Shown piece after piece: positions 6,120 through 29,412 of a stretch of 64,000 nucleotides of DNA (position 1 is its first letter; the number at the start of each line of letters is the position of its first letter). A model generated the notes under the pieces. The model saw nothing but the letters and a program-made list of their open reading frames with translations, had not been told where the DNA came from and ran no database searches. The stretch covers positions 142,584 to 206,583 of the forward strand of contig JAWCMS010000001.1 of assembly GCA_038849525.1 (NCBI GenBank), given 5' to 3'. The translations under genes were made by a program, and so were the position numbers. The stretch is from Candidatus Pacearchaeota archaeon. Its GTDB lineage: Archaea > Nanobdellota > Nanobdellia > Pacearchaeales > JAHJTO01.

Positions 6120-6845
6120 ATGAGTATATTAAAAAATCTGCTAAAAGGATTTATTAAAATCTTTTTGGTTCTTACAATAATACTTTTCATTTTGGCATCG
6201 ACAGGAGCTCATTTTACAGAAAAGGAAAATTTAAAGTATTTAATTCAAGAAATAATGGTTGAACAAATCGATAAAAACTATCTTAAAACAATAACCGATG
6301 AATTAAATAATTTATGTTATCAACATGAAAATGAGGTAATTAATAGATACGTTTATGAAATTAATACAACAATAAATATAGACTGCACTAAAATTAGTGA
6401 GGAATACGCAAAAAAGATATTCAAAGATTATGTAGTTGATAAAGAAATTGAAAATCTATATGCTCAAAAATGTACTGGATTTAAGTGTTTTGCAAATTTT
6501 TCAGCTGCTGCAAGCCAATCAGCGCATAGTTTTCTTAGAAAATTAGAAGTTGTTTTTGCAATTTTAGCATTAATTTTTGTAGTTTTGTTATTTTTATTGA
6601 CAAAAAAGGTTTCTAATAAAATGTTTGCAATTGGAATTCCTTTATTTATCTGTGGGGTTCCTTATTTCTTTATTGAAACTATAAAGAAAAAAATTTTTTT
6701 AACTATCTCTAATGCTGTTATAATAAAAATAATTATAGATGCAATTTTTGATTATGCTAGCAATTTATTTTTGGTGATATTAATAATAAGCATTATTCTC
6801 ATTGCTATTGGATTTATTATAAAAATAATTTTTAAAAAAAGCTAA
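6120..6845 (+). CDS. hypothetical membrane protein
   Basis: 241 aa with N-terminal and C-terminal hydrophobic segments. Confidence 0.45.
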   Translation: MSILKNLLKGFIKIFLVLTIILFILASTGAHFTEKENLKYLIQEIMVEQIDKNYLKTITDELNNLCYQHENEVINRYVYEINTTINIDCTKISEEYAKKIFKDYVVDKEIENLYAQKCTGFKCFANFSAAASQSAHSFLRKLEVVFAILALIFVVLLFLLTKKVSNKMFAIGIPLFICGVPYFFIETIKKKIFLTISNAVIIKIIIDAIFDYASNLFLVILIISIILIAIGFIIKIIFKKS

Positions 6846-7648
6846 AGAGAATCAAAAGGAGATTTAATTTTCTTTAACTCATCTGTTGAAACATGTGTAT
6901 ATATTTGGGTTGTATTAAGATTAGAATGACCAAGTAGTTCTTGGATGTAACGAATATCTGTTCCAGCTTCAAGAAGATGTGTAGCAAAGCTGTGTCTTAA
7001 AGTGTGAGGTGTAACTTTTTTTTGTATATTTGCTTTTTTTGTTGCTAATTTTACTATCTTTTGAATATTTCGCGTTGTTAAAGGTTTGTCTTTTGAAAAT
7101 AAGTATTGATAGTTTGGATGTTTATCTATGAATGCTTTTAGTTCTGGAATTATTTTCTCTGGTATAATAAAAATCCTATCCTTATTACCTTTTCCAGATT
7201 TTATTATTCCTGTTCGGTTTTCTAAATTCAAATCTAAAATTTTTAAATTTACCAATTCTGAAACTCTTAGACCAGTAGCATAAATAAAAGAAATTATTAA
7301 CTTCGACTTATTTGTATCTGCACTTTCTATTATTCTTTTAACTTCTTCTTTAGTTAATACCAAAGGTAGTTTTTTTTCCTTTTTTATTGGATGTATGTTA
7401 GCAAAAATTTCCTTTCCTAAAATTTTTTCATAATAAAATTTTAATGAAGCTAATGCAAGGGTGACAGTTGCTGTTGATTTTTTATCTAAAGATGCTATAA
7501 ACTGTTTTATATCATCTAAATTAACTAAATCTGCAGATTTTTTTATAAATTCAAGAAATTTTTTGTTGAAAAAAAGATAATTTTTTATTGTTTTTTCTGA
7601 TTTTCTTTGTAAACGCAATTCTGTTTCTAGTTTTTTTAGATCATCCAT
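6842..7648 (-). CDS. xerA: Tyrosine recombinase XerA/XerC-like
   Basis: C-terminal catalytic motif HTLRHSFATHLLEAGTDIRYIQELLGHSNLNTTQIYTHV (R, H-x-x-R, Y). Size of 268 aa is typical of XerA. Confidence 0.85.
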   Translation of the reverse strand: MDDLKKLETELRLQRKSEKTIKNYLFFNKKFLEFIKKSADLVNLDDIKQFIASLDKKSTATVTLALASLKFYYEKILGKEIFANIHPIKKEKKLPLVLTKEEVKRIIESADTNKSKLIISFIYATGLRVSELVNLKILDLNLENRTGIIKSGKGNKDRIFIIPEKIIPELKAFIDKHPNYQYLFSKDKPLTTRNIQKIVKLATKKANIQKKVTPHTLRHSFATHLLEAGTDIRYIQELLGHSNLNTTQIYTHVSTDELKKIKSPFDSL

Positions 7649-7783: not shown

Positions 7784-8491
7784 TTATTTTTTCTTTTTTT
7801 GAATTTCTGTTTCTAAATAAACTTGACCAAATAAAGAAAATGATATTACTCCAATAATAAAAGAGTATATTGCTGAGCCTACATAAGGAATCAAGCCCAG
7901 GATTATACTAAATAATATACCAATAAAGGCCATTAAGATCCAAGCAACAAAATATTTTCCAGTAAATGCTTTTTTAAATATTCTTTTAAACTTAAAAGCT
8001 CCTGAAAAATTATTTTCTTGTAAATAAGAAAGAACAGCTATTGGTATGACATAAATTGCAACTAAAAATAACAAAGTTGAAAAAATAATAAAAGGAATAG
8101 CGTTGATTAATAATGGCCTTAAATTATCTATTATGGGTGAGATCAGAGCCATCTTAGCTTCGTCTGTAGCAGCATTAGAGATATCTTCTAAAGACAGTAA
8201 TGTTAATAATTGAACCATTAATGAACCTACTCCCACTATAAAAATAATTATTGCAGGTAAAAAATAAATTATAGAAATGAGAAAATTAAAAAAACCTTTT
8301 ATAAAAAGATTACCAAAGTTTTTCCATTCTGGCATTTTTTTACTCGGCTTTGTTTTTCCTACGCCAGAACATTCTAATATAAAGCCTACAGCAAACCAGT
8401 TTATTATAGGGAGTATAGAAAAGAGTATTCCAATTATTAACTTTTTGATATCTGTAAAAGGCTTTTCAAATGCGCTTGTATAATCTACCAT
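7784..8491 (-). CDS. polytopic membrane protein (DUF4013-like)
   Basis: 235 aa with multiple TM helices. Confidence 0.45.
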   Translation of the reverse strand: MVDYTSAFEKPFTDIKKLIIGILFSILPIINWFAVGFILECSGVGKTKPSKKMPEWKNFGNLFIKGFFNFLISIIYFLPAIIIFIVGVGSLMVQLLTLLSLEDISNAATDEAKMALISPIIDNLRPLLINAIPFIIFSTLLFLVAIYVIPIAVLSYLQENNFSGAFKFKRIFKKAFTGKYFVAWILMAFIGILFSIILGLIPYVGSAIYSFIIGVISFSLFGQVYLETEIQKKKK

Positions 8492-8582: not shown

Positions 8583-9533
8583 TTGGCGTTAGCCAAGTCG
8601 AAAAGATTAAAAATAAGCAAGACACTCTATTATAGAGGTGATTCGCCTCAGACGATTTCTGAGATCAAAATGGTATATGAAGATAAAAACAAAAATGAAA
8701 GTTTATTCCATGCTACTTTAATATATTTAAAAATAGTTTCTGCAGGAACAGCTTCTGGAAATAAAAAACTTAAAGAGTTTCTCGAAAAATACGGTTCTTT
8801 TGAAGGAATCTATAATGTGTATAAAGGTTCTATGTCTATTGAAGATTCGTTAAAAAAAATAAAAGGGCTTGAAAACATAATAAACAAACTAAACAACTTG
8901 AATTTTGATTTTAAAGTTATTACAATAAAAGATATTAATTTTCCAGAACATCTTAGAAAAATTGAAAATGCAACTCCAGTATTGTATGCAAGAGGAGATT
9001 TAAATCTATTAAATAAAAAAAGCATTGCTGTTGTCGGCTCAAGGCATATTTATCCAAATAAGGACAGACAAGTTTATGAAGAAGCTTATGATGTCATGAA
9101 AAGGCTTGTTGAAAAAAAGTATGTAATTGTTTCAGGGTTAGCTGAAGGATGTGATACTATAGGACATATACAAACAATTGAAAATGGGGGAAAAACTATT
9201 GCTGTATTAGGAACTCCTTTGGATCAGTACTATCCTTCTTCTAACAAAAATTTGCAAGAGAAGATAGCAAGAGAGCATCTTTTAATCTCACAATATCCTA
9301 TAGGAATCAGAACATTTAAATCTTATTTCACAAACAGAAACCATACAACAGTCTCTTTGGCAACAGAGGGGATTGTTGTGATAAAGGCATCTGACAATTC
9401 AGGAACAATGCATGCTGTAAAATTTTGTTCAGAACAAAAAAAACCAATTTATGTTCTTGCTAATAATTTTTCAAATAACTATAAGTGGCTTGAAATTTAT
9501 AAAAATTTTATAAAAAGAGTTGATAAAAAATGA
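8583..9533 (+). CDS. dprA: DprA/Smf-like DNA-processing protein (Rossmann/SLOG fold)
   Basis: Motifs SIAVVGSRHIYP, VIVSGLAEGCDTIGHIQTIENGGKTIAVLGTPLDQYYP, LLISQYP, YFTNRNHTT and EGIVVIKASDNSGTMHA match the DprA core: VVSGLArGID...GrTiAVLG...YP..N, FP.RNR, SGslITA. Confidence 0.7.
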   Translation: MALAKSKRLKISKTLYYRGDSPQTISEIKMVYEDKNKNESLFHATLIYLKIVSAGTASGNKKLKEFLEKYGSFEGIYNVYKGSMSIEDSLKKIKGLENIINKLNNLNFDFKVITIKDINFPEHLRKIENATPVLYARGDLNLLNKKSIAVVGSRHIYPNKDRQVYEEAYDVMKRLVEKKYVIVSGLAEGCDTIGHIQTIENGGKTIAVLGTPLDQYYPSSNKNLQEKIAREHLLISQYPIGIRTFKSYFTNRNHTTVSLATEGIVVIKASDNSGTMHAVKFCSEQKKPIYVLANNFSNNYKWLEIYKNFIKRVDKK

Positions 9534-10792
9534 AAAAATATCTTTTTGATTTAGACAACACAATTGCAGACACATCAGAAATAAAAATATATAGAAAATC
9601 GGCTGAAGGAATGGAATATTTAGCAGAAAACATTGACAAATTTAATATATACTATAATCCTAAAATAACCAATCTTATAAACAAACTTAATGAAAAAGGA
9701 AAAATCAGCATAATAACAAATGCCCCTCTTAACTATGCAAAAGCTATTCTTAAAAAAGGAGAATTTTCTGAAAGCATTCCAATTTATTCGAACATGAAAA
9801 AACCTATCCCAACAAAAATTTATTTTGAGCTTAAAAGAAAAATAAATCCTAATGAAACAATTGTAATAGGAAATTCTCCAAAAGACATAATTGCTGCTCA
9901 TGGATATATAGAAGATTTTGCAGGATATGAATGGCCAGAAACTTTTAATCTTCCATCAGCAGGAGTTATTTTTAAAAGAGAGAATGAAAAAATAAGACTC
10001 AAAAAAGCCATCAAGTTGAATAAAGCAGAACCTAATAAAATTCTCAAAAATACAGAAGATCTTGAAGAGCTTGTTGATGAATTTGAATCAGGAAAAATAA
10101 CTTATCAAAGAAGGAAATCTATAGATGAGTATTTTTTCATTTCTAAGCAAGAACTTCCTGAAAAAGATATTAAAATTGAAATATTTTATCTTGGAAATTA
10201 TTATCCGAAGGACAAGTTTCCTGATATGAACAAAAAAGATGCTTTTTCCCAACATCTTTTAAGGTTCAAAAGAGCTCAAGATTGCCCTATAGAGAATATA
10301 AATGATAGGATAATTGATAAATATTTTTTCAATGGACAGATAAGAGGAATCTATACATATTGGCATTCAATAAAATTTTTTCTTGAAAAAGCAGAAGACA
10401 GAATAGATGAGATGAATCTTAAAGGAAAAACTGAAGTGATAGCTTCTCCGAATTCATACCCTGAATACTGCTATGATACTGATGTTAATCAAGCATTTGC
10501 AAGAAAACTTAATAATGATTGCTTTAACATTTCTGAAACAAAAAGAATTGTATATAGAGTGTTTCCTAAAGAAAAACATTCGAGAGGCATTGAAAATCAT
10601 CTTAAGACAATAGGTATTGAGAAGACAGCCTTATCACATATTCAGACTCTTAATAATATAATAATATTTGATGATAATATTACTTCAGGTTCTCAGATAA
10701 AAGCAATAGCTTATCTTTTAAGACAAAAATGTAATTTTCAAGGAAATATTTATGGCTTAACATTGGGAAAAACAGTTGGATCTATGCAATAA
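9530..10792 (+). CDS. Fusion of an N-terminal HAD-superfamily hydrolase and a C-terminal PRTase-fold (ComF-like) domain
   Basis: N-terminus has FDLDNTIADT (HAD motif I DxDxT), IITNAP (motif II) and K...GNSPKDIIAAHG (motifs III/IV). C-terminus has IIIFDDNITSGSQIKAIAYLL, a type I PRTase PRPP-binding loop as in ComF/ComFC. The 4-bp overlap with dprA suggests an operon. Confidence 0.6.
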   Translation: MKKYLFDLDNTIADTSEIKIYRKSAEGMEYLAENIDKFNIYYNPKITNLINKLNEKGKISIITNAPLNYAKAILKKGEFSESIPIYSNMKKPIPTKIYFELKRKINPNETIVIGNSPKDIIAAHGYIEDFAGYEWPETFNLPSAGVIFKRENEKIRLKKAIKLNKAEPNKILKNTEDLEELVDEFESGKITYQRRKSIDEYFFISKQELPEKDIKIEIFYLGNYYPKDKFPDMNKKDAFSQHLLRFKRAQDCPIENINDRIIDKYFFNGQIRGIYTYWHSIKFFLEKAEDRIDEMNLKGKTEVIASPNSYPEYCYDTDVNQAFARKLNNDCFNISETKRIVYRVFPKEKHSRGIENHLKTIGIEKTALSHIQTLNNIIIFDDNITSGSQIKAIAYLLRQKCNFQGNIYGLTLGKTVGSMQ

Positions 10793-10831: not shown

Positions 10832-11083
10832 ATGAAACTGACGAGAAAAGAATATTCCGTTCTGTATGAAATACATTCAGGAAGAAGCGATATTGAAAGA
10901 TTATCTAAGGTTTTTAGTAAAGAATATGCCTTTAAAACAGTAAAAAAGCTTGAAAAACTTGGATTAATAAAAATAGTTTCTTGGAGAGACAATCCTTTAT
11001 ATGGATTAATGCTAACAGAAAAAGGTGAAAAACTTCTTCAGAGTAAAAAGTATATGAAATGGTTTATTGAAGAAGGAGATTAG
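10832..11083 (+). CDS. small winged-HTH transcription regulator
   Basis: 83 aa with SVLYEIHSG...RLSKVF...VKKLEKLGLIKIV, a MarR/TrmB-like wHTH. Confidence 0.5.
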   Translation: MKLTRKEYSVLYEIHSGRSDIERLSKVFSKEYAFKTVKKLEKLGLIKIVSWRDNPLYGLMLTEKGEKLLQSKKYMKWFIEEGD

Positions 11084-11143
11084 CGTGTGACGGCGCGGCT
11101 CGCTTCTAAAAATACTTAAATATAAGCTCTGCATGGAAAAAAC

Positions 11144-12607
11144 ATGCCAATTTTGACGAAATCAAAATATGTTGACGGCTTGAAATGCCTGAAGTACTTG
11201 TGGCTTCAATATAATAATCCATCAGCCATTCCGGCTCCTGACGAATATGCCTTGTTTGTGATAAATGAAGGCCATAAAGTTGGAGAGTTTGCAAAAACTC
11301 TTTATCCTGATGGAATTGCTGTAAGCACAGAAAGCAATGATGAGAACATAAGAAAAACTCAGCAATTATTGAAATTGAGAAAGCCCCTTTTTGAGGCAGG
11401 AATTTCTATAGATAATTGTTATGCAAGAACAGACATTCTTTTGCCTGTTGAAAAAGATGAATGGGACATTGTTGAAGTGAAAAGTTCAAGTAGAGTGAAA
11501 GAAGATGAGCATATTCCTGATGTTGCTTTCCAGAAATATGTTTATAGCAAAGCAGGATTAAAAATAAGAAAATGCATTATAATGCATGTTGATAGCAAAT
11601 ATGAAAGAAATGGGAATATAGATGCAGAAGCCCTGTTTGTAAGAGAGGATGTAACTGAAAAAGTTGGCAAAGTAATCAAGGAAGTTCCAAAAAACATAAG
11701 GAGATTTTTTACTGTTATAAAAAGCAAAAAATGCCCTGAAATTGATATAGGAAATTATTGTGCTGATGAATTTGGAGTGCATGAAAATGATGCATTCTGG
11801 AAAAAACATCCTGACTGCAATATCCTTCAATTGTATCACTCAAAAGACAAGGAAGAATTATTCAATAAGGGAATATTGAGGATAAAAGATATTCCTTCAA
11901 GTTATAGATTAGATGCAAAGCAGCTTATACAGAAGAAATGTGATGAAAATAACAGCATTCATATTAATAAGAAGGAGATATCAAATTTTCTTTCTAATTT
12001 GCAGTATCCTCTTCATTTCCTTGATTTTGAGACTTATAATACGGCAATTCCATTGTATGACAAGCTTAAGCCATGGGAAAAAGTGGCTTTTCAGTATTCA
12101 TTACATATTGTAAAAGATGAAAATGCAAAGCCATTGCATTATTCTTTTCTTGCAAAAAACAATTCTGATCCAAGAAAAGATTTTATTGAAAGCCTTGAAA
12201 AAAAGATTATGAAAAAAGGGAGTATAGTTGTATGGAATGCGGTATTTGAAAAAAGTATTCTTAAAAGCATTGCAGAGCATATGCCAGAATATGCAGTTTC
12301 TGTAAATGAAATAATTGGAAGGATTGAAGATTTGATGATTCCTTTCAAAGATTTTTCATATTATAATCCTAAACAGAAAGGAAGCAATTCCCTAAAAACA
12401 ATATTTCCTTTGCTTACAGGAAGAAGCTATCAAGGATTAAATATCTCAGAAGGAGGAATTGCAAGTGCAAGATATTATAAAGCGGTTCATGAATCGATAA
12501 AAGAAAGCGAAAAAGAAAAAATTTTTGATGATCTTGAAAAATACTGCTCTTTGGATACAGAGGCGATGATTTTTGTTCTTGACAAGCTTAATGAGATTGC
12601 AAAGTAA
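11144..12607 (+). CDS. Dual nuclease: N-terminal RecB/Cas4-like PD-(D/E)xK domain plus C-terminal DEDD/RNase H-like exonuclease domain (DUF2779-like)
   Basis: N-terminus has KSKYVDGLKCLKYLWLQY then D(ILLP)...WDIVEVKSS, a D/E-x-K triad. C-terminus has YPLHFLDFETYNTAIP, resembling DnaQ Exo I D-x-E. Confidence 0.55.
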   Translation: MPILTKSKYVDGLKCLKYLWLQYNNPSAIPAPDEYALFVINEGHKVGEFAKTLYPDGIAVSTESNDENIRKTQQLLKLRKPLFEAGISIDNCYARTDILLPVEKDEWDIVEVKSSSRVKEDEHIPDVAFQKYVYSKAGLKIRKCIIMHVDSKYERNGNIDAEALFVREDVTEKVGKVIKEVPKNIRRFFTVIKSKKCPEIDIGNYCADEFGVHENDAFWKKHPDCNILQLYHSKDKEELFNKGILRIKDIPSSYRLDAKQLIQKKCDENNSIHINKKEISNFLSNLQYPLHFLDFETYNTAIPLYDKLKPWEKVAFQYSLHIVKDENAKPLHYSFLAKNNSDPRKDFIESLEKKIMKKGSIVVWNAVFEKSILKSIAEHMPEYAVSVNEIIGRIEDLMIPFKDFSYYNPKQKGSNSLKTIFPLLTGRSYQGLNISEGGIASARYYKAVHESIKESEKEKIFDDLEKYCSLDTEAMIFVLDKLNEIAK

Positions 12608-12719: not shown

Positions 12720-12959
12720 ATGGTAAAAGAGTTGATAAGAATTGACTTGCCTGGTTTTGAGAAGAAGGATGTTGTTGTCAAAGTAAAAGATAATAAAGTA
12801 TTTGTGAATGCAGAAAAAAAGCATCACTTTAAGAAAAAAGGAAAAAACTTTTATCATGAGGAAAGTTCTTATAGAGCAGTAAGTTATATGACAACAATTC
12901 CTAAAGGAAAAAAAGTCAAAACAGAATTTAAAAAAGGCAGGCTAAAGGTTGTTGCATAG
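12720..12959 (+). CDS. Hsp20/alpha-crystallin domain protein (short, ACD core only)
   Basis: Motifs IRIDLPGFEKKDVVVKVKDNKVFV...YRAVSYMTTIPKG...KGRLKVV match the ACD consensus. A stop lies immediately upstream of the ATG. Confidence 0.55.
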   Translation: MVKELIRIDLPGFEKKDVVVKVKDNKVFVNAEKKHHFKKKGKNFYHEESSYRAVSYMTTIPKGKKVKTEFKKGRLKVVA

Positions 12960-18040: not shown

Positions 18041-20650
18041 TTGATAAAAACCATGGAAATAGCTGTAAGAAAAAGCGAACAAGAATTATTAAATATTCTT
18101 GATCCTTTAGTAAGAGAGTGGTTTTTTTCTCACTTTAAAGAATTTTCAGAACCGCAACTCTATGGAGTAGTGCCTATCTATGAAAGGAAAAATATACTTA
18201 TCTCTGCTCCTACTGGAGGAACTAAAACTTTGACTGCTTTTCTTTCTATAATAAATTATCTTGTTATTTTGGCAAAAAAAAATGAACTTGAAGATAAGGT
18301 TTATTGTATTTATACAAGCCCGCTTAAAGCTTTGGCAAATGACATTCTTGTTAATCTAATTAATCCTCTAAAAGAAATAAATGAAATAGCCAAGAAAAAA
18401 GGGATTATGCTGCAAGAAATAAGAGTTTCTGTAAGAACAGGAGACACAACAATAGATGAAAGACAGAAGATGCTTAAGAAGGTACCACATATTCTTATAA
18501 CAACCCCCGAAACATTAGCAATAATATTAAATTCAATAAAACTTATTGAAAAGCTATCTAATGTTGAGTTTCTTATTGTTGATGAAATTCATGCTCTAGC
18601 AAGTAACAAAAGGGGTGTTCATTTATCACTAAGTATTGAAAGACTTAATGAGTTATCAATGATAAAACCGGTAAGAATAGGATTATCCGCAACTATAGCT
18701 CCTTTGAAAGATATTGCTAGTTATCTTGTAGGGTATGAAAATGGAAAACAAAGAGAGTGTTTAATTGCAGATATACATTCAACAAAAAAAATTGATTTGA
18801 AAGTTATAACCCCTGTTGAAGACTTGATAGATTCGCCAACTATAGAACAACAAAAAGGATTATATGAGCTACTTGATAAATTAATACAAGAACACAAAAC
18901 AACATTGATATTTACAAATACAAGAAGTGCTACTGAAAGGGTTATTAATCATTTAAAAGAGAGGTTTCCATCTAAATATATTGATAATATAGGGGCGCAT
19001 CACTCTTCTTTAAGTAAAGAATTTAGGTTCAAAATTGAAGAAAAGCTTAGAAAAGGAGAATTAAAGGTTGTTGTTACTTCAACAAGTTTAGAGCTAGGAA
19101 TAGACATAGGGTATATTGATTTAGTCATAATGCTTGGAAGCCCTAAAAGTGTAGCAAGAGCATTACAGAGAACGGGAAGAGCAGGACATAGATTACATGA
19201 AGTAAGTAAAGGAAGATTTGTTGTTCTTGATAGAGATGATTTGGTTGAATGTGCAGTAATGTTAAAAGAAGCAAAAGAAAATAAGATTGATAGTGTTCAA
19301 ATTCCAAAAAATTGCCTTGATGTTTTAAGTCAGCAGATTTATGGAATGGCAATATCAAAGGTTTGGCATGTAGGTGATATGTTAAGATTAATAAGACAAA
19401 GTTATTGCTATCATGATCTCAAAACAGAAGACTTCTATTCTGTTATTTCTTATCTCAGTGGAGAGTACGCTTTAAATGCAAGAAATGTATATGCAAAAAT
19501 ATGGTTCGACAGCAAGACCGGTATGATAGGTAAAAAAGGAAAACTTGCAAGAGCAATTTATATGACAAATGTAGGAACTATACCTGAAGAAAGTTTTGTA
19601 AATGTTATAATACAATTGCCTGTTGAAAAAAGAGATATGAAAATAGGGGTAATAGATGAGGGTTTTTTGGAAAGACTGAAAAGAGGAGATGTTTTTGTTC
19701 TTGGAGGGCATAAATACGAGTTTCTTTATGCTAAGGGTATGAACGCTTATGTAAATGCATCTGTATCAAAATCACCAAACATCCCTTCATGGTTCTCTGA
19801 GATGCTACCTTTATCCTTTGATCTTGCAATGGCTGAGCAAAGGTTTAGAAAACTGGTTGCAGAAAAATTTGAAATAAAAAAACCAGCAAATGAAATAATA
19901 AAATTTATTTCTAACTATCTTTATGTTGATGAAAAAACTGCCGAAATAATTTATTCTTATTTTTATGAGCAGTTTAGATATAGCAAGATACCACATCTTG
20001 AAAGATTATTAATAGAGTATTGGAATGATGGGAGGAAAAATTATGCTATATTCCACAGTTTATTTGGGAGGAGAATCAATGATGCTTTATCTAGAGCTTT
20101 GGCTTATGTTGTTGGAAGATTTGGGGGGAGAGATATAGAAATTGGAATAAATGATAATGGCTTTTATCTTGCTTCTCAGACAGAGATGCAGGTTGAAAGA
20201 GCAATCCATGAAATTAATAGTAAAAATCTGCGAGATATATTAGAAGAAGCTATTTCAAAGACAGAAGTCTTTAAGAGAAGATTTAGACATTGTGCCACAA
20301 GAGCACTAATGTTGCTAAGGAATTATAAAGGACATAGAAAAAGTGTTGGAAAACAGCAGATGTCTAGTCACTTTTTACTTACGGCAAGTCAAAAAGCATC
20401 GGCAGATTTTCCTATTTTAAAGGAGACTAAAAGAGAAATAATGAATGATTTAATGGATTTGGAAAATGCAAAATTAGTATTGGATTTGATAAAGGAAGGA
20501 AAGATAAAGATTGAAATATTAAACAAAGAATTGCCTTCTCCTTTTTCTCTTGGGTTAATAATACAAGGACATACAGATTTGATGAGAATAGAAGATAAAA
20601 TAGAATTTTTAAAAAGAATGCATAAAGAAATAATAAAAAAGATAGAGTAA
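18041..20650 (+). CDS. lhr: Lhr-core type superfamily 2 (SF2) ATP-dependent helicase
   Basis: 869 aa. Motif I APTGGTKTL (non-canonical G-T-K), II DEIH, III SAT, VI QRTGRAGHR. The long C-terminal extension is typical of Lhr-core. Followed by MPE. Confidence 0.75.
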   Translation: MIKTMEIAVRKSEQELLNILDPLVREWFFSHFKEFSEPQLYGVVPIYERKNILISAPTGGTKTLTAFLSIINYLVILAKKNELEDKVYCIYTSPLKALANDILVNLINPLKEINEIAKKKGIMLQEIRVSVRTGDTTIDERQKMLKKVPHILITTPETLAIILNSIKLIEKLSNVEFLIVDEIHALASNKRGVHLSLSIERLNELSMIKPVRIGLSATIAPLKDIASYLVGYENGKQRECLIADIHSTKKIDLKVITPVEDLIDSPTIEQQKGLYELLDKLIQEHKTTLIFTNTRSATERVINHLKERFPSKYIDNIGAHHSSLSKEFRFKIEEKLRKGELKVVVTSTSLELGIDIGYIDLVIMLGSPKSVARALQRTGRAGHRLHEVSKGRFVVLDRDDLVECAVMLKEAKENKIDSVQIPKNCLDVLSQQIYGMAISKVWHVGDMLRLIRQSYCYHDLKTEDFYSVISYLSGEYALNARNVYAKIWFDSKTGMIGKKGKLARAIYMTNVGTIPEESFVNVIIQLPVEKRDMKIGVIDEGFLERLKRGDVFVLGGHKYEFLYAKGMNAYVNASVSKSPNIPSWFSEMLPLSFDLAMAEQRFRKLVAEKFEIKKPANEIIKFISNYLYVDEKTAEIIYSYFYEQFRYSKIPHLERLLIEYWNDGRKNYAIFHSLFGRRINDALSRALAYVVGRFGGRDIEIGINDNGFYLASQTEMQVERAIHEINSKNLRDILEEAISKTEVFKRRFRHCATRALMLLRNYKGHRKSVGKQQMSSHFLLTASQKASADFPILKETKREIMNDLMDLENAKLVLDLIKEGKIKIEILNKELPSPFSLGLIIQGHTDLMRIEDKIEFLKRMHKEIIKKIE

Positions 20651-20661
20651 AAAATAAAAAA

Positions 20662-21381
20662 ATGAAAATTTTAAATGATATCGAAATTGTTGATAAGTGT
20701 CTTTTAATAAAGAAAAGAATTCTTGTAATAGCAGATTTACACATTGGTTATGAAGAAGCATTGAATAAACAAGGTATTTTTGTTCCGAGAATGCAATTTA
20801 AAGAAACAAAAAAAGAGATTAATAAAGTATTTAAAAAACTAAATAGAAAAAAAATAGAGAATATAATTATAAATGGTGATTTGAAGCATGAGTTTGGTGA
20901 AATTTCAACACAGGAATGGTTTGAAACATATGAAATTCTTAACATCTTTGAAAAACATTGTAAGAAAATTATTTTGGTAAAAGGAAATCATGATACAATC
21001 TTAAAACCGATAGCAAAGAGGAAGGGATTAAAGATAGAAAAAAAGTATATTATTGATAATGAAATAGCAATAATTCATGGTGATGAAATTATTGAAGATA
21101 AAGAAATTAATAAATGTAAAATATTAATTATTGCTCATGAACATCCTGCAATTTCACTATATGAAGAACCGAAAAGTGAAAAATATAAATGTTTTTTACT
21201 TGGTAATTTCAGAAATAAAAAGTTAGTTGTTATGCCTTCATTTCTTCCAATTATTGAAGGAACTGATGTAAGAAAAGAAGAACTTCTTTCTCCTTACCTT
21301 AAAAGAGATATTGGAAACTTTAAAGTTTTTATTGTAGGAGATAAAACATATAAGTTTGGAAAATTGAAAAATATAGGATAA
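20662..21381 (+). CDS. Metallophosphoesterase (MPE, Mre11/SbcD-related calcineurin-like) partner of Lhr
   Basis: Motifs ADLHIGYEE, INGDLKHE, VKGNHD and IAHEHP are phosphoesterase signatures. The Lhr-MPE gene pair is a known conserved arrangement. Confidence 0.7.
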   Translation: MKILNDIEIVDKCLLIKKRILVIADLHIGYEEALNKQGIFVPRMQFKETKKEINKVFKKLNRKKIENIIINGDLKHEFGEISTQEWFETYEILNIFEKHCKKIILVKGNHDTILKPIAKRKGLKIEKKYIIDNEIAIIHGDEIIEDKEINKCKILIIAHEHPAISLYEEPKSEKYKCFLLGNFRNKKLVVMPSFLPIIEGTDVRKEELLSPYLKRDIGNFKVFIVGDKTYKFGKLKNIG

Positions 21382-21431: not shown

Positions 21432-21513
21432 GGCAGGTTGCCAGAATGGTAATGGGATGGTCTCGAAAACCATTGTCCGCAAGGACTTACAGGTTCAAAT
21501 CCTGTACCTGCCG
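21432..21513 (+). tRNA. tRNA-Ser (anticodon CGA), type II with long variable arm, no intron
   Basis: GGCAGGT...ACCTGCC acceptor, anticodon loop TCTCGAA, variable arm TGTCCGCAAGGACTTAC, T-arm CAGGTTCAAATCCTG. Confidence 0.8.
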
Positions 21514-21548
21514 CTTAAATTTTTAAATTGTGATATATTAGAAAGAAT

Positions 21549-21980
21549 ATGAAAACAAGAAAAGGAATCGTAGCGATAATTTTTGTGAGGAATAAAGAAA
21601 AGAAATATTTACTTCTAAGAAGAAAAATGTATTGGATTGGTTGGGAGTGGCTTAAAGGTGGAAGAAAAAAAGGGGAAAAAGAAATTGAATGTTTAAAAAG
21701 AGAAATAAAAGAAGAGACTGGAAAAAATGTTGAAGAGTATATTGTTAAAAAAACTAATTATATTTTTTCTTTTAAATATGAAAGACCGTTTGTTCATGAT
21801 AAAGAGTTATGGAGGGGGGCAAAAAACAGAGTATATTTAGTTGAATTTAATAATAAAAAGATAAAACTTGATAAGGATGAGCATTCTTCTTTTAGATGGG
21901 TAACAAGAAAAAAAGCCTTAAAAATGATAACGTGGGATGATCAAAGAAAGGTATTTGAAAAGTTAACAAAAAATCTCTAA
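21549..21980 (+). CDS. Nudix hydrolase
   Basis: Nudix box GGRKKGEKEIECLKREIKEETG (G-x5-E-x7-REUxEExGU). Confidence 0.75.
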   Translation: MKTRKGIVAIIFVRNKEKKYLLLRRKMYWIGWEWLKGGRKKGEKEIECLKREIKEETGKNVEEYIVKKTNYIFSFKYERPFVHDKELWRGAKNRVYLVEFNNKKIKLDKDEHSSFRWVTRKKALKMITWDDQRKVFEKLTKNL

Positions 21981-23232: not shown

Positions 23233-24447
23233 TTGTTTTTCATGTCAATAAAATTAGACAAAATTTTTGATTCTTTTACTAAGGAAAGTATATTTAAAAA
23301 TAAATTTATTCTTCAATCAAATTATGTACCAGAAGCAATACAACATAGAGATAAACAAATAAAACAAGTTGCATCAATACTTGCACCTTGTCTTAGATTA
23401 GAAAGGCCTAGTAATCTTTTTATTTATGGTAAAACAGGTACTGGCAAAACAATTTCAATAACTTTTGTTAAAAATGAACTGTTGAAAAGAGCACAAGAGC
23501 AAGATATTCCGTTAACAATAGAGTATATAAATTGTAAACTAAAAAAAGTTGCGGATACAGAATATAGAATTTTAGCAGAACTTATTAAAAAACTCGGTGG
23601 AAATGTTCCATCTACAGGACTCCCTACAGATCAAGTATACCAAAAATTTATTGAAATTGTGGATTCAAAAAAACAATTATTAATTATTATACTTGATGAA
23701 ATAGATCAAGCAGTTAAGAAAATAGATGATAATTTTCTTTATAATCTTACAAGACTAAATTCAGAGCTTACTAAAGCCCAAATGTCAATTATAGGGATAA
23801 GTAATGATGTGAGATTTCTTGATTATATTGATCCAAGAATAAAAAGTAGCTTATCAGAGGAAGAACTTGTTTTTCCACCATATAATGCTTTACAATTAAA
23901 AGATATTTTAAAAGAAAGAGCAATAAAAGCATTTAAAGAAAATGTAATTGGAGAAGGAGTTATAGAAAAATGTGCTGCATATGCTGCACGTGAACATGGT
24001 GATGCAAGAAGGGCATTAGATTTATTAAGAATAGCTGGAGAGCTAGCAGAAAGAGATGGAAAAAATATTGTTTTATTAGAATATATAGACAAGGCAAATG
24101 AAAAAATAGAACGTGATAAAATTTTTGATGTTGTTGCAACACAACCAAAACAATTTCAGCTTGTTCTTATGGCTATTATAATTTCAGAAGAAAAAAAAAT
24201 GGAACAAATTTTTACTGGTGACATCTATAATATTTATCAAGCTTTATGTAATAAAACCTCTACTGAACCACTAACACAAAGAAGAATAGGGGATATTATT
24301 GCAGAATTTGATATGCTTGGGATAATAAACGCAAGAGTAGTAAGCAAAGGCAGATATGGAAGGACAAGGGAAATTAAACTTGCAATTCCATCTACCATTC
24401 TTGACAAAATAAAAGAAATGATAAAAGATTCTTTAGGTTTAAAATGA
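23233..24447 (+). CDS. cdc6: Orc1/Cdc6 replication initiator (AAA+ with C-terminal winged helix)
   Basis: Walker A GKTGTGKT, Walker B LIIILDEID, sensor regions and C-terminal wH. Confidence 0.9.
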   Translation: MFFMSIKLDKIFDSFTKESIFKNKFILQSNYVPEAIQHRDKQIKQVASILAPCLRLERPSNLFIYGKTGTGKTISITFVKNELLKRAQEQDIPLTIEYINCKLKKVADTEYRILAELIKKLGGNVPSTGLPTDQVYQKFIEIVDSKKQLLIIILDEIDQAVKKIDDNFLYNLTRLNSELTKAQMSIIGISNDVRFLDYIDPRIKSSLSEEELVFPPYNALQLKDILKERAIKAFKENVIGEGVIEKCAAYAAREHGDARRALDLLRIAGELAERDGKNIVLLEYIDKANEKIERDKIFDVVATQPKQFQLVLMAIIISEEKKMEQIFTGDIYNIYQALCNKTSTEPLTQRRIGDIIAEFDMLGIINARVVSKGRYGRTREIKLAIPSTILDKIKEMIKDSLGLK

Positions 24448-25961
24448 GTATTATTAAAGCCTTTTTACAAGAAGGAATCCTTATAGAACCATCACTTTTA
24501 GAATTTTTTAAAACAAATCAAATAAGTTATAATCTCATTGATGTTATAAAGAGTCTTAATATAAGTTTTTTATCAAAAGATGTATTATTTCAAAATAATG
24601 AAAAAATAAAATTCTTTTTAGAGAGTATTAAACATGGAAAAAATGATGAAGAAAAAGCGTTGATAGAAAAAACAATTGAGTGTTTGTCTATTTTCAAAAA
24701 AGAAATAAAAAATGAAACAAAAGAAAATAAAATTAAATTTAAAATTCTTGAATCATGGAAAATTCCAAGTAGAAAAATAAATGTTGATGATTTTGTAAAA
24801 TATTTCAAAAATAGACTTGTTATATTAAAAACTGCTCTACAAGAAAGAGCTGAACTTGTAAATTTAACTGCAATAAATAAAATATCAAATCAAAAACAAA
24901 ATAATATAAGTATTATTGGAATCGTATATGAAAAGATAATTACAAAAAATAAAAATATAATTTTAGAGATAGAAGATTTTACTGGAAGAATTTCTGTTCT
25001 TGTAAATTTTAATAAGGAAGATGTTTATAAAAAAGCTGAAAAGGTACTGCTTGATGATGTTATTGGTATAAAAGGAAGTGGAAATTCCGAACTTTTATTT
25101 GCAAACGATATCTTTTTTCCAGATGCATTTATACCAAAGAAAGAGGGTGATAAAGAAGATTTTGCCGCTTTTATTTCAGATATTCATATAGGTTCAAGTA
25201 TGTTTTTGGAGGATGAATTTTTAAGATTTATTAATTGGTTAAACTTAGAAAAAGGGAGCGATGAACAAAAAGAGATAGCTAAAAAGGTAAAATATCTTTT
25301 TATAGTAGGAGACACAGTAGATGGTGTAGGAGTTTATCCAGGTCAAGAAGATTTATTAAAAATTAAAGATGTAAAAGAACAATATATGAAATTAGCAGAG
25401 TTTTTAAATAATATAAGAAAAGATATTACAATTTTTATGATTCCTGGACAACATGATGCTGTAAGAATTGCAGAGCCACAACCTCCAATAGATGAAGATT
25501 ACGCTCCAGAACTTTATAAAATAAATAATCTTGTTTTATTAAGCAACCCTTCTATGGTAGAAGTTTGTGGAAGAAAAATTTTACTTTATCACGGTGCAAG
25601 TTTTCATAATATTATAGATGGCATTGAAGAATTAAGACTTGCAAATGCACATAACAATCCTTCTAAAGTGATTAAAACAATTTTAAACAAAAGACATTTA
25701 GCACCAACACACGCATCAACAGTATATATTCCTACTAAAGATACAGACCCGTTAGCAATAAGAGAAGTACCTGATGTTATTGCAACAGGAGAGCTACATA
25801 AAGTAGATATTGGTTTTTATAACAATATTAGAATAATAGCTTCTTCATGTTGGCAATCTCAAACACCCTTTGAAGAAAAAGTTGGCAATTTATCTGAACC
25901 ATGTAAGGTTCCTATTTTGAATTTAAAAAATAATTCAGTAAAAATAATGGATTTTTCATAA
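24444..25961 (+). CDS. polB: DNA polymerase II (PolD) small subunit DP1 (3'-5' exonuclease, calcineurin-like)
   Basis: Phosphoesterase motifs FISDIHIGS, FIVGDTVDG, IPGQHDA and LYHGASF. 4-bp overlap with cdc6. Confidence 0.85.
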   Translation: MSIIKAFLQEGILIEPSLLEFFKTNQISYNLIDVIKSLNISFLSKDVLFQNNEKIKFFLESIKHGKNDEEKALIEKTIECLSIFKKEIKNETKENKIKFKILESWKIPSRKINVDDFVKYFKNRLVILKTALQERAELVNLTAINKISNQKQNNISIIGIVYEKIITKNKNIILEIEDFTGRISVLVNFNKEDVYKKAEKVLLDDVIGIKGSGNSELLFANDIFFPDAFIPKKEGDKEDFAAFISDIHIGSSMFLEDEFLRFINWLNLEKGSDEQKEIAKKVKYLFIVGDTVDGVGVYPGQEDLLKIKDVKEQYMKLAEFLNNIRKDITIFMIPGQHDAVRIAEPQPPIDEDYAPELYKINNLVLLSNPSMVEVCGRKILLYHGASFHNIIDGIEELRLANAHNNPSKVIKTILNKRHLAPTHASTVYIPTKDTDPLAIREVPDVIATGELHKVDIGFYNNIRIIASSCWQSQTPFEEKVGNLSEPCKVPILNLKNNSVKIMDFS

Positions 25962-25968
25962 TAAAAAC

Positions 25969-28900
25969 ATGCAACAATATTTTAAAGAAATAGAGAATAA
26001 AGTAAAGGTTGCTTATTCGATAGCTGGAGAAGCAAGAGCGAAAGGCTTAGATCCAGTGTCAATAGTAGAAATACCTCTGGCTACAAGTTTGGCTGAAAGA
26101 GTTACAGGATTAATTTCAACAAAATATCCTCAAGTTAGAAATTCTGGAATAGAAAAAAGGATTAAAGAACTAGAAAAACAATATGGTTTTCTTGACTCTG
26201 CTATTTGTTTACAAATTGCAGAAGAAGTTGCTAAAGAACGTTTTTGCAAATTCCAAAATATGGAAGAAGCATTAGATGCAGGAATAAGAATTGCATTTGC
26301 TTATATAACTCTTGGCGTTGTATCATCACCATTAGAAGGATTTACTCATTTTAAAATAAAGAAAACAATAGATGGAAAAGATTATATGGCTGTTTATTAT
26401 TCTGGGCCAATAAGGTCTGCTGGTTCAACTACAGCTGCTTTTTCTCTTTTAATTATAGATCATCTAAGAGAAGTTTTTGGATTCGCAAAATATGATCCTA
26501 CTGAACAAGAAATCAAAAGAATGATTACTGAGATATATGATTATCATGAAAGAGTTGCTAATCTACAATATTTACCTACTGAACAAGAAATATATTTTAT
26601 GTTTAAGAATTTACCTATACAAGTTACAGGGGATCCATCAGAAGAAAGAGAAGTTTCAAATTACAAAGATCTGGCCAGAATTGAAACAAATAAAATTAGG
26701 AATGGACCATGTCTTGTTTTAGGGGAAGGGCTGGCACAAAAATCTTTCAAAATTTTAAAGAGATTGAATCATCTAAGAGAAAAAGGTTTTAAACTAACGG
26801 ATTGGGATTGGTTAAAAGATTTTACTGAATTACAGAAAAAATTAATTGCCGAAAAAAAAGAGAAAGCAACGGGAACTTATATACAGGATATCGTTGCTGG
26901 AAGACCTGTTTTTTCTCACCCCTCTAGATCTGGAGGATTTAGGCTTAGGTACGGAAGGGCAAGAACATCAGGATATAGTGCTATTGCTATTTCTCCTTTA
27001 ACTATGGTTCTATTGAATAATTTTATTGCTATTGGAACACAAATAAAACTAGAAAAACCAACAAAAGCTGCAGCAGTAACTTCTTGTGATACAATAGAAG
27101 GTCCTATAGTAAAATTAAAAGATGGTTCGCTTGTTAAGATTAAAGATTTAAAAGAAGCAAATGAAATAAAACCTTATGTAGAAGAAATAGTTTATTTAGG
27201 AGATATATTAATTTCTTATGGGGATTTTTTGAATAGAAATCATATTCTTCTTCCTGCAGGATATAATGAAGAGTGGTGGTATGCAGAATTATTAGAAAAA
27301 GATAAAATAGAAGCAGAAAAAATAAACCCTTTAGATATAAGTCTTGATAAAGCAATAGAATTAAGTGAAAAATATGAAATTCCTTTACATCCAAAATACA
27401 TTTTTTACTGGTCACAAATAAATTACGAATTATTTTTTGCAATGTTAAAATGGCTTGAAAAAGCAAAAATAATAAACGGAAAATTAATTCTTGATTATAC
27501 TGAAAAAGAAAAAAAAGCAAAACGCGCTCTTGAATTGCTTGGAGTAGAGCATAAAAAAGAAGGAGACAAATTTGTTGTCGATGAAATAATAACAAAAGCA
27601 TTTTTTTTGAATTTGGGTAAACGTATAGAAGAAATCAACGAACTAATAAGACAACCAGAACAAAGAGAAGGAGTTCTTGAATTTATAAATTCTTTTTCTA
27701 AATATAAAATCAAAGATAAAGCAGGGACTTTTATAGGTGCGAGGATGGGTCGACCTGAAAAAGCAAAGTTGAGAAAACTTGTTGGTTCTCCACATGTTTT
27801 GTTTCCTGTAGGCGAAGCAGGAGGAAGAATGAGGAGTGTACAAGAAGCTATGAAATCTTATGTCGAAGCTGATTTTCCTATTTATTTCTGTGATAATTGT
27901 AAACAAGAAACCATTTATTTTATTTGTGAAAAATGTAATAATAAAACAAGGAAACTATGTTACTGTCCATTATGTGAAAGAATTGTAGGTGAAAATTGCC
28001 CTCAACATGGGGGGATACAAGGAGGAAAAGTTAAAACATTTATGCAAAAAAGAATTGATCTTAGTTATTATGTAAATAGTGCTTTAAATTATTTGAATAT
28101 CCAGAAAACTGATATACCAGAATTAATAAAAGGTGTTAGGGGAACAAGTTCTGAGGAACATATACCAGAACATATAGCAAAAGGAATTCTAAGAGCTCAG
28201 TTCTCACTTAATGTAAATAAAGATGGAACAATAAGATATGACGCAAGTGAAGTTCCGATTACACATTTTAAACCAAAAGAAATAGATACTGAAATAAAAA
28301 AATTAAAAGAGCTAGGATATACAAAAGATATTTTTGGAAAAGAACTAGTTGATAAAGAACAAATTTTATGTTTGAAGCCACAAGATATTATTCTCCCTTC
28401 ATGTCCTGAAACTCTTGATGAAAAAGCAGATGATGTTTTTGTAAATATTGCAAAATTTATTGATAATTTGCTTGTGAGATTTTACAAACAAAAACCATTT
28501 TATAATGTTAAATCAAGAGATGATTTAGTAGGACATTTAGTTGTTGGAATTGCTCCACATAACTGTGCGGGGGTAGTTGGAAGAATAATAGGGTTTAGTA
28601 AGACGCAAACTTTTTTGGCAAGCCCATATATGCATGCTGCAATGCGTAGAGATTGCGATGGCGATGAAGCTGCGATAATGTTACTTTTAGATTTACTGCT
28701 TAATTTTTCAAAAAAATTTTTACCTGCACATAGAGGAGGGACACAAGATGCACCTTTAGTTTTAAATGCAAGAATAAGAGCTTCTGAAGTTGATGATATG
28801 ATTCTTGATATGGATATTACAAAAAATTTACCATTAGAACTTTACAAAGCAGCTGAAGAGTTTAAATCTCCAAGTAGTATTAAGATTGAAAACATTGGTA

Positions 28901-29412
28901 CTAGGCTTGGAGAAGAGGAAAAAGATGCAAATGTTTTCGAGGATTTATGGTTTACTCATGATACTTTAGATATCAATAATGGAACTATTTGTTCTTCTTA
29001 TAAAACACTTGAAACAATGCAAGACAAAGTAAAAGCGCAGATGGAACTTGCAGAAAAAATTCGGGCTGTAGATACAACAGATGTTGCAAGGCTTGTTATC
29101 GAAAGACATTTTATTCGTGATATTAGGGGAAATTTGAGAAAATTTTCAGGACAGCAATTTCGCTGTGTTGATTGTAATACGAAATACAGAAGGCCACCTT
29201 TGACTGGCAAATGTTTAAATTGTAATGGAAGAATAATATTCACAATTGCTGAAGGTTCTATTGTTAAGTATCTTGAGCCTGCTCTTCAACTAGCTGAAAA
29301 ATATAATATCTCACCTTATCTTAAACAAAGTTTAGAATTAACAAAGTCTTACATCGAGAGTATTTTCGGTAAAGAATTAGAAAAACAGCAAGACTTAGAA
29401 AGGTGGTTTTAA
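25969..29412 (+). CDS. polC: DNA polymerase II (PolD) large catalytic subunit DP2
   Basis: 1147 aa. Zn fingers CDNCKQET...CEKCNNKT...CPLCE and C-terminal CVDCNTKY...CLNCNG. No intein-sized insertion. Confidence 0.85.
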   Translation: MQQYFKEIENKVKVAYSIAGEARAKGLDPVSIVEIPLATSLAERVTGLISTKYPQVRNSGIEKRIKELEKQYGFLDSAICLQIAEEVAKERFCKFQNMEEALDAGIRIAFAYITLGVVSSPLEGFTHFKIKKTIDGKDYMAVYYSGPIRSAGSTTAAFSLLIIDHLREVFGFAKYDPTEQEIKRMITEIYDYHERVANLQYLPTEQEIYFMFKNLPIQVTGDPSEEREVSNYKDLARIETNKIRNGPCLVLGEGLAQKSFKILKRLNHLREKGFKLTDWDWLKDFTELQKKLIAEKKEKATGTYIQDIVAGRPVFSHPSRSGGFRLRYGRARTSGYSAIAISPLTMVLLNNFIAIGTQIKLEKPTKAAAVTSCDTIEGPIVKLKDGSLVKIKDLKEANEIKPYVEEIVYLGDILISYGDFLNRNHILLPAGYNEEWWYAELLEKDKIEAEKINPLDISLDKAIELSEKYEIPLHPKYIFYWSQINYELFFAMLKWLEKAKIINGKLILDYTEKEKKAKRALELLGVEHKKEGDKFVVDEIITKAFFLNLGKRIEEINELIRQPEQREGVLEFINSFSKYKIKDKAGTFIGARMGRPEKAKLRKLVGSPHVLFPVGEAGGRMRSVQEAMKSYVEADFPIYFCDNCKQETIYFICEKCNNKTRKLCYCPLCERIVGENCPQHGGIQGGKVKTFMQKRIDLSYYVNSALNYLNIQKTDIPELIKGVRGTSSEEHIPEHIAKGILRAQFSLNVNKDGTIRYDASEVPITHFKPKEIDTEIKKLKELGYTKDIFGKELVDKEQILCLKPQDIILPSCPETLDEKADDVFVNIAKFIDNLLVRFYKQKPFYNVKSRDDLVGHLVVGIAPHNCAGVVGRIIGFSKTQTFLASPYMHAAMRRDCDGDEAAIMLLLDLLLNFSKKFLPAHRGGTQDAPLVLNARIRASEVDDMILDMDITKNLPLELYKAAEEFKSPSSIKIENIGTRLGEEEKDANVFEDLWFTHDTLDINNGTICSSYKTLETMQDKVKAQMELAEKIRAVDTTDVARLVIERHFIRDIRGNLRKFSGQQFRCVDCNTKYRRPPLTGKCLNCNGRIIFTIAEGSIVKYLEPALQLAEKYNISPYLKQSLELTKSYIESIFGKELEKQQDLERWF

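Follow-up and report, generated by a model that had tools for sequence, protein, structure and literature searches.

A probable ShosTA-family toxin–antitoxin module, distantly related to that of Escherichia coli, in a Pacearchaeota chromosome

What is the function of a protein in which a HAD-type hydrolase is joined to a phosphoribosyltransferase (PRTase), and why does its gene lie directly behind a DprA-family gene in an archaeon? The question is raised by a gene pair in a 64,000-nt stretch of the chromosome of a Pacearchaeota (DPANN) archaeon (GenBank assembly GCA_038849525.1, contig JAWCMS010000001.1, positions 142,584 to 206,583), which is called the window here and whose own positions are used throughout. 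A sequence-only reading, made without database searches, had described the product of 9530-10792 as an unusual HAD-phosphatase::PRTase fusion serving nucleotide salvage from imported DNA or nucleotides, or a ComF-like function. The locus is a distant archaeal member of ShosTA, and the genes at 8583-9533 and 9530-10792 probably constitute a two-gene ShosTA-family (Shosta) toxin–antitoxin (TA)/abortive-infection module. The fusion itself is ordinary: because the papers on E. coli ShosTA describe both, the HAD::PRTase build is recognized as the standard architecture of the toxin ShosT and the DprA neighbor as its standard partner. The word "unusual" is therefore dropped, and the interest that the earlier reading had attached to the DprA neighbor was well placed, this gene being the key to function.

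The open reading frame (ORF) at 9530..10792 (+ strand) codes for 420 aa from an ATG, exactly as described earlier. It is preceded by a DprA-family ORF at 8583..9533 (+ strand), 316 aa long when counted from TTG and having an alternative ATG at 8670. The stop codon of the first gene overlaps the start codon of the second in the 4-nt sequence ATGA at 9530..9533 (AAAAATGAAAAA; GATAAAAAATGAAAAAAT), which is a translational coupling of the two genes; the same 4-nt overlap is found in three related loci (L001, L005 and L008). The gene at 9530-10792 is considered real because an identical protein is on record (NCBI name "HAD hydrolase-like protein"), 15 full-length homologues were found (31-48% identity), and the AlphaFold2 model, built on the homologue alignment, is confident (predicted local distance difference test score, pLDDT, 92.3; predicted template modelling score, pTM, 0.90) and consists of two Rossmann-type domains. 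Conservation was scored on an alignment of 16 archaeal sequences and, for the wider clade, on an alignment of 99 sequences; counts out of 16 and 99 below refer to these. The pair and its overlap are as follows.

8583..9533, + strand: candidate ShosA-like antitoxin of the DprA family (PF02481, PADLOC PDLC03961, PDB matches to DprA and ShosA, pairing)
9530..10792, + strand: candidate ShosT-like toxin, HAD plus PRTase (PADLOC PDLC03962, hhalign, AlphaFold2, Foldseek)
9530..9533, + strand: start/stop overlap ATGA (sequence)

ShosTA is a type IV TA anti-phage system of E. coli APEC O1, and structures are available for its toxin ShosT (8ZVB/8ZVC/8ZVD, 9W2P/9W2Q) and for ShosA (8ZVA, 9VZO). E. coli ShosT is a 424-aa protein. 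Residues 1-164 form a HAD-type hydrolase/pyrophosphatase domain similar to BT2127, a HAD pyrophosphatase, and residues 165-424 a PRTase domain of non-canonical type. Its toxicity needs binding of phosphoribosyl pyrophosphate (PRPP) via D331/D332 and R285 and is abolished by mutation of D331/D332; it also has a weak, Mg-independent pyrophosphatase activity, the loss of which lowers toxicity only marginally (PMC11961720, PMC12961424). In automated surveys, ShosTA was widespread in archaea and present in over 25 taxa of archaea (bioRxiv 10.1101/2024.10.26.620412; PMC11291487). The E. coli locus (L006) was recovered for comparison by rebuilding a ShosA fragment from a printed alignment and searching it against plasmids. 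It lies in a P2-like prophage and consists of shosA (327 aa) followed directly by shosT (424 aa; L006 4213-5487), an order shared with the window pair. A Piscirickettsia plasmid carries the pair in this order too, and there ShosT is annotated as "HAD hydrolase-like protein".

The window pair shares with ShosTA the arrangement of adjacent, co-oriented genes, DprA-like then HAD-PRTase, and the build of the products: a DprA-family Rossmann domain behind a small N-terminal domain in the first, and, in the second, a HAD-fold hydrolase at the N-terminus and a PRPP-binding PRTase at the C-terminus of a chain of about 420 aa. ShosT was the sole defense family matched by the 420-aa protein in PADLOC (PDLC03962, E = 2.1e-10, residues 254-416), and E. 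coli ShosT matches the same broad model at 3.1e-53. PDLC03962 was also matched individually by 96 of the 99 clade members with no competing defense family; weak matches to PsyrT were obtained for 9 of the 99. For profile–profile comparison, 111 bacterial ShosT homologues were gathered and 34 diverse ones aligned. The two families proved to be collinear across both domains in hhalign, with a probability of 96.8% (E = 2.7e-10, 321 columns) for the 16 archaeal sequences and of 97.7% (E = 2.4e-12, 329 columns) for the 99-sequence clade. Taken separately, the N-terminal domains aligned at 96.4% (E = 1.1e-9, 137 columns) and the C-terminal domain aligned with the ShosT PRTase domain at 85.9% (E = 5.3e-6, 171 columns), whereas the cross-domain controls, N against C and C against N, gave 0.5% and 0.4%. 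In Foldseek, the full-length model retrieved ShosT 8zvc and 8zvd (E = 3.4e-6 and 5.7e-6) over its full length.

Both domains named in the sequence-only reading are present in the one protein, as judged by Pfam, AlphaFold2 and hhalign. The N-terminal domain scored above the gathering thresholds of PF00702 (33.1 bits vs 26.4, E = 9.3e-8) and PF13419 (31.1 bits vs 23.8, E = 3.2e-7), the matches spanning residues about 4-124, and the four HAD motifs that had been read from the letters, with DxDxT at residues 7-11, align as motifs I-IV. D7, D9, T11, T63, K91 and D119 are invariant in 16/16, and DxD is kept in 93 of the 99 clade members; at position 115, the first acidic position of motif IV, the window protein has Asn where 13 of the 16 sequences have Asp. 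The motif III Lys and the motif IV G...D are shared with E. coli ShosT. The family profile matched HAD phosphatase structures (e.g. 2hi0, 3mc1), and the Rossmannoid fold, motifs I-IV and small helical cap are those of HAD phosphatases and pyrophosphatases generally (BT2127 of B. thetaiotaomicron, 2hi0, 3mc1, 2hsz), from which the window domain differs in its fusion to a PRTase and its pairing with DprA. The features of this domain are the following.

9530..10087, + strand: HAD-fold hydrolase domain, residues 1-186, including the helical cap insertion (PF00702, PF13419, hhalign)
9548..9562, + strand: HAD motif I, D7-L-D9-N-T11, Asp nucleophile and general acid/base (invariant in 16/16)
9716-9718, + strand: HAD motif II, T63 (invariant in 16/16)
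9800-9802, + strand: HAD motif III, K91 (invariant in 16/16; aligns with K92 of E. coli ShosT)
9869..9886, + strand: HAD motif IV, G114-N-S-P-K-D119 (G114 and D119 invariant; aligns with G116..D121 of ShosT)

The C-terminal domain is a divergent PRTase. Its PRPP loop at 376-389 had been called a canonical type I loop; the loop is there and its acidic pair D381/D382 is invariant in 16/16 and nearly invariant across the 99 clade members, but it is only near-canonical (four hydrophobic residues, DD, then TSG), and the 420-aa protein has no match to PF00156 and one to PRTase_2 only at E = 0.19 in the Pfam scan. A strict PROSITE-type PRPP pattern was unmatched in the window protein, in which N383 and Q389 deviate, and likewise in 97 of the 99 clade members and in 34 of the 34 bacterial ShosT. 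In hhalign, D381/D382 align with D331/D332 of E. coli ShosT, the pair needed for toxicity; the Asp nucleophile D7 and the acidic pair of the PRPP loop are both invariant in the 16 sequences. A second conserved segment, residues 305-321, follows the first core strand (E301-305) in the AlphaFold2 model; P311, C314 and D318 are invariant and A305, E312 and N320 nearly so in the 16 sequences. It is a candidate pyrophosphate (PPi) loop, by analogy with the extended PPi loops of ShosT and ComFC. R343, P346, K347 and R352 are nearly invariant in the region that corresponds to further PRPP-contact residues of E. coli ShosT, H240/K280/R285 of its PPi and flexible loops, where the spacing differs and hhalign confidence is low. 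The features of this domain are the following.

10088..10789, + strand: divergent PRTase domain, ComF-like in appearance, residues 187-420 (PADLOC, hhalign, Foldseek)
10442..10492, + strand: extended loop ASPNSYPEYCYDTDVNQ, residues 305-321, candidate long PPi loop (conservation and model)
10655..10696, + strand: PRPP-binding loop NIIIFDDNITSGSQ, residues 376-389, with the acidic pair D381/D382 (invariant in 16/16)

Residues 187-420 were also modelled separately (pLDDT 83) and compared with PDB by Foldseek. The best match was ComFC of H. pylori (7p0h_A, E = 2.9e-3, probability 0.97, 195 columns), a PRT fold; adenine and hypoxanthine-guanine phosphoribosyltransferase (APRT/HGPRT) folds were among the weak structural similarities. 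The closest stand-alone relatives of the domain (about 180 aa) have TIGR00201 ComF as their best model (1e-9 to 4e-13, below its cutoff, over most of the PRT part), whereas E. coli ShosT gives no ComF signal. The PRTase domain of the window clade thus looks ComF-like. One further protein, P0118 (470 aa, cluster of 10), has the reverse order, with a ComF-like PRTase at the N-terminus (about 75-203) and HAD-type matches at the C-terminus (about 384-440); it seems that an independent event fused this pair of domains the other way round.

The upstream product matched PF02481 (DNA_processg_A, E = 4.4e-51) over residues 108-299, with about 100 residues N-terminal to this domain, and matched the PADLOC model of ShosA (PDLC03961) at E = 2.9e-64. 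It also matched PsyrA, at E = 1e-26. PsyrTA (RqlHI) is likewise a two-gene defense module with DprA/SLOG-like and PRTase domains; unlike it, the window pair lacks a RecQ-like helicase and distributes its domains differently between the genes, and the PsyrA and PsyrT matches are much weaker than those to ShosA and ShosT. Compared with the window, other loci have kept the DprA-like partner far better than the ShosT-like protein (identity of 63% for the partner and 35% for the ShosT-like protein in L001, 52% and 31% in L005; also L002 and L008); the presumed antitoxin is the slower-evolving of the two.

A DprA-family gene adjoins the HAD-PRTase gene in 16 of 17 distinct loci, mostly upstream and overlapping and twice divergent, and the other neighbors of the pair differ between all loci; in some, IS66 transposases, or a ParE toxin and a LAGLIDADG endonuclease, lie beside it. 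When 185,579 species-representative genomes were scanned with the 16-sequence alignment, nine loci were found, all archaeal (Woesearchaeota, Pacearchaeota, Nanoarchaeota and two metagenome-assembled genomes labelled Methanosarcinales), and local tblastn placed a DprA-like gene immediately upstream in 9/9. An exhaustive search of 1.84 billion representatives with a hidden Markov model (HMM) of the C-terminal domain retrieved only 83 clusters at E <= 1e-30; almost all are proteins of about 360-440 aa that end in the domain. Proteins of 436-461 aa from Aeromonas form a second tier of this family (hhalign 100%, E = 2e-60), and in A. jandaei (L019) DprA is followed by the HAD-PRTase gene, with a P2-type gpA replication gene two genes away. 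In its P2-like prophage, the ShosTA pair of E. coli lies between a portal gene and a gpA-type replication endonuclease, directly adjacent to the latter, which suggests that one prophage cargo region holds both subtypes, the DxDxT type in Aeromonas and ShosTA in E. coli. The second-tier proteins were tried as a bridge to bacterial ShosT and rejected: P0098 and P0105 had no PDB match, and the second-tier alignment reached 53% against bacterial ShosT, worse than the archaeal alignment. Such a sparse, patchy, neighbor-independent and prophage-associated spread is that of a TA/defense cassette, unlike that of core salvage or DNA uptake genes. Salvage from imported DNA, as proposed earlier, is accordingly not the best-supported function; the cassette-like spread, the profiles and the pairing point to ShosTA.

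Several results weigh against this assignment. Identity to E. coli ShosT is about 13-15%, a weak sequence link that plain sequence search misses: phmmer against PDB returned one HAD phosphatase and no ShosT, the family profiles found ShosT in PDB weakly (E = 0.09 and 0.002) and over the HAD half only, and the C-terminal-domain profile did not find it in PDB. The E. coli-type model PDLC03012, which E. coli ShosT matches at 2.6e-294, is not matched by the window protein. The full-length Foldseek match to ShosT has a template modelling (TM) score of only about 0.3 and an E-value barely better than those of HAD-only matches, and the C-terminal domain model alone retrieves ComFC, ShosT not being among its top 50 PDB matches. 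On the DprA side, PDLC03961 gave S. pneumoniae's competence DprA 209 bits over its Rossmann domain and the window protein 204 bits over the corresponding region; the PADLOC ShosA match was therefore rejected as evidence, since a genuine DprA scores equally well, and because the ShosA model is not specific it is ShosT and the gene pairing that carry the assignment. In PDB the window DprA is also nearer to canonical DprA (S. pneumoniae 3uqz, 2.6e-30) than to E. coli ShosA (8zva/9vzo, about 3e-15). The host is an archaeon; archaea have RadA in place of RecA, and RecA, the demonstrated partner of ShosA, is lacking there. One of the closest relatives of the window protein, P0003 (444 aa, 46% identity), lacks a DprA-like gene in the 4 kb to each side of it at locus L003 (Pfam, tblastn) and is either an orphan toxin homologue or part of a pair whose partner was replaced; its neighbors are unannotated small proteins. 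Finally, the HAD Asp nucleophile (DxDxT) that the window clade keeps is replaced by G, S or T in 34 of the 34 bacterial ShosT (motif I F[G/S]xxD), which retain the motif III Lys and motif IV. Because the site is intact here and degenerate there, the hydrolase chemistry of the window clade may differ from that of ShosT and, to judge from the motifs, may be the more conventional of the two. Since bacterial ShosT lacks the nucleophile, the pyrophosphatase activity reported for E. coli ShosT has to rely on non-canonical HAD chemistry.

If the ShosTA assignment is followed through, the properties of the pair (toxicity, neutralization, trigger, anti-virus role and partnership with RadA) would be those expected by analogy with E. 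coli ShosTA. The downstream protein would act as a ShosT-like toxin, its PRTase domain binding PRPP via the D381/D382 loop and transferring or consuming the phosphoribosyl group on some acceptor. This chemistry would disturb purine nucleotide metabolism and lead to replication failure and DNA damage, and the HAD domain might pull the reaction forward by removing phosphate or pyrophosphate from the product (PPi or a phosphomonoester). The upstream protein would be a ShosA-like antitoxin that need not bind the toxin: it would bind single-stranded DNA (ssDNA) and load the recombinase, RadA in this archaeon, so that the damage is repaired. A virus that shuts off host expression or supplies competing ssDNA would cause ShosA to be lost or titrated, and ShosT would then arrest or kill the cell.

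A stronger version of this proposal, which we regard as unlikely, is that the DxDxT clade of DPANN archaea and Aeromonas prophages is a mechanistically distinct branch of ShosTA, with a phospho-aspartyl phosphatase, descent from a ComFC-DprA pair and wiring to RadA. Its HAD domain would dephosphorylate the product of the PRTase and might, for instance, convert a phosphoribosylated base to a riboside that is toxic or wasted, an activity unlike the weak, Mg-independent pyrophosphatase of E. coli ShosT. Besides the nucleophile, the clade has in its helical cap a roughly 20-residue insertion with a conserved PY..T.EGR-type motif, and E. coli ShosT lacks this insertion. The ComF-like PRTase hints that ShosTA may descend from a ComFC-DprA pair.

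ComFC interacts with DprA, binds PRPP and ssDNA, and is defined by an N-terminal 4-Cys zinc finger, and the pair might accordingly be thought a competence-like DNA-handling or nucleotide-scavenging module, in which a ComF-like PRTase, a HAD enzyme and DprA process imported ssDNA or nucleotides in a host-dependent DPANN archaeon. The window protein shares with ComFC (TIGR00201, 7P0H) the PRT fold, the DD..T(S/T)G PRPP loop and the extended PPi loop, as well as the link to a DprA protein, which for ComFC is both functional and physical. ComFC as the best PDB fold and TIGR00201 as the best model of the stand-alone relatives speak for such a module, as do the DprA neighbor, nearer to 3uqz than to E. 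coli ShosA and inseparable from DprA by the ShosA HMM, its greater conservation compared with the fusion protein, and the apparently intact catalytic site of the HAD domain. Unlike ComFC, however, the window protein carries a HAD domain and lacks the 4-Cys zinc finger: its cysteines (252, 314, 331 and 401) are scattered with no CxxC, and 0 of the 99 clade members have two or more CxxC. TIGR00201, whose cutoff is 233.55, scored 16.6 bits (E = 0.0056) and covered residues 365-400, the PRPP loop only. The neighbors examined included no competence genes, nine loci in 185,579 species representatives are too few for core scavenging, the flanks differ at every locus and sometimes hold insertion sequence or TA genes, and the Aeromonas sister clade lies near a P2-type gpA gene, as E. 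coli ShosTA does. A competence or scavenging role is thus decidedly unlikely; the ComF likeness proposed in the sequence-only reading stands for the PRTase fold and is less supported as to a role in competence.

The same homology and cassette evidence that favors the ShosTA-family module would be expected of a ShosTA-like TA pair serving addiction, stabilization or a stress response only, with no antiviral role, and the IS66 and ParE genes beside some loci would suit such a pair. ShosTA was reportedly found by Kimelman et al. in 2012 as a toxin–antitoxin pair before its defense role was known. Set against this, the sister clade near P2-type gpA is placed like the prophage-borne E. coli ShosTA, and the protection that E. 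coli ShosTA gives against T7 amounts to six orders of magnitude (PMC11961720, PMC12961424), so that the chance of a purely non-antiviral pair is judged slim. That the protein is a housekeeping bifunctional enzyme, a salvage PRTase with a 5'-nucleotidase or pyrophosphatase and an incidental or loosely co-regulated DprA neighbor, is highly improbable: intact HAD motifs I-IV above the Pfam thresholds, weak similarity to phosphoglycolate phosphatase and pyrimidine 5'-nucleotidase models, the APRT/HGPRT folds and the bare NCBI name would allow it, but none of the characterized phosphatase or PRTase equivalog models came near its cutoff for the 420-aa protein, the DprA adjacency in 16/17 loci, often with overlapping stop and start codons, is not incidental, and the family is rare where a salvage enzyme should be widespread in the lineage.

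ShosTA was already known, including in archaea, and a further member opens no new kind of biology. The ShosTA-type assignment does give a function to a "HAD hydrolase-like protein" and its "DprA" neighbor in a DPANN genome, a group in which defense systems are few and poorly characterized. The residual interest lies in the intact HAD nucleophile and cap motif, the ComF-like PRTase and the recombinase partner in archaea; having kept the nucleophile that bacterial ShosT lacks, the clade is a cleaner subject for working out the ShosT reaction. For annotation, the PADLOC ShosA model alone cannot tell ShosA from housekeeping DprA, and archaeal ShosTA calls depend on ShosT and adjacency.

The genes around the pair were also inspected. 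Directly downstream, 10832-11083 (+) codes for a winged-helix protein of 83 aa that gave weak matches of the Csa3/CasR (3.8e-6) and MarR types, and 11144-12607 (+) for a protein of 487 aa that has DUF2779 (PF11074, 3.2e-41) and a nuclease region resembling Cas4 (PF01930, 1e-4) and also matches the UU173 family; this downstream neighborhood (10832-12607) is not conserved in the other loci of the family. Upstream and divergent from the ShosA-like gene are a DUF4013 membrane protein at 7784-8491 (-) and a tyrosine recombinase at 6842-7648 (-) (Phage_integrase, 2.7e-46, with an N-terminal SAM-like domain). The recombinase was considered as a marker of an integrated element, an idea that was set aside because archaea carry a housekeeping tyrosine recombinase, XerA; the gene at 6842-7648 could be this or the integrase of a mobile element.

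The wider window is ordinary archaeal chromosome. A small Hsp20-family chaperone is encoded at 12720-12959 (+) (1.2e-10). An Lhr-type helicase (DEAD, Helicase_C, WH_Lhr, DEAD_assoc) at 18041-20650 (+) and a calcineurin-like metallophosphoesterase (MPE) at 20662-21381 (+) form a classic Lhr-MPE pair, followed by tRNA-Ser(CGA) at 21432-21514 (+) and a NUDIX hydrolase at 21549-21980 (+). A defense island around the gene pair was considered and rejected: PADLOC found nothing specific in the neighbors, and the Lhr helicase matched DpdJ/BrxHI through the generic helicase core only. At 23233-29412 (+), the genes for Orc1/Cdc6 and for the small (DP1) and large (DP2) subunits of PolD follow in a row; they confirm that the chromosome is archaeal and suggest an origin of replication close by. 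The 764-aa type II/IV secretion-family ATPase at 47947-50241 (+) (T2SSE, 5.9e-13) probably belongs to a system for an archaeal pilus or archaellum.

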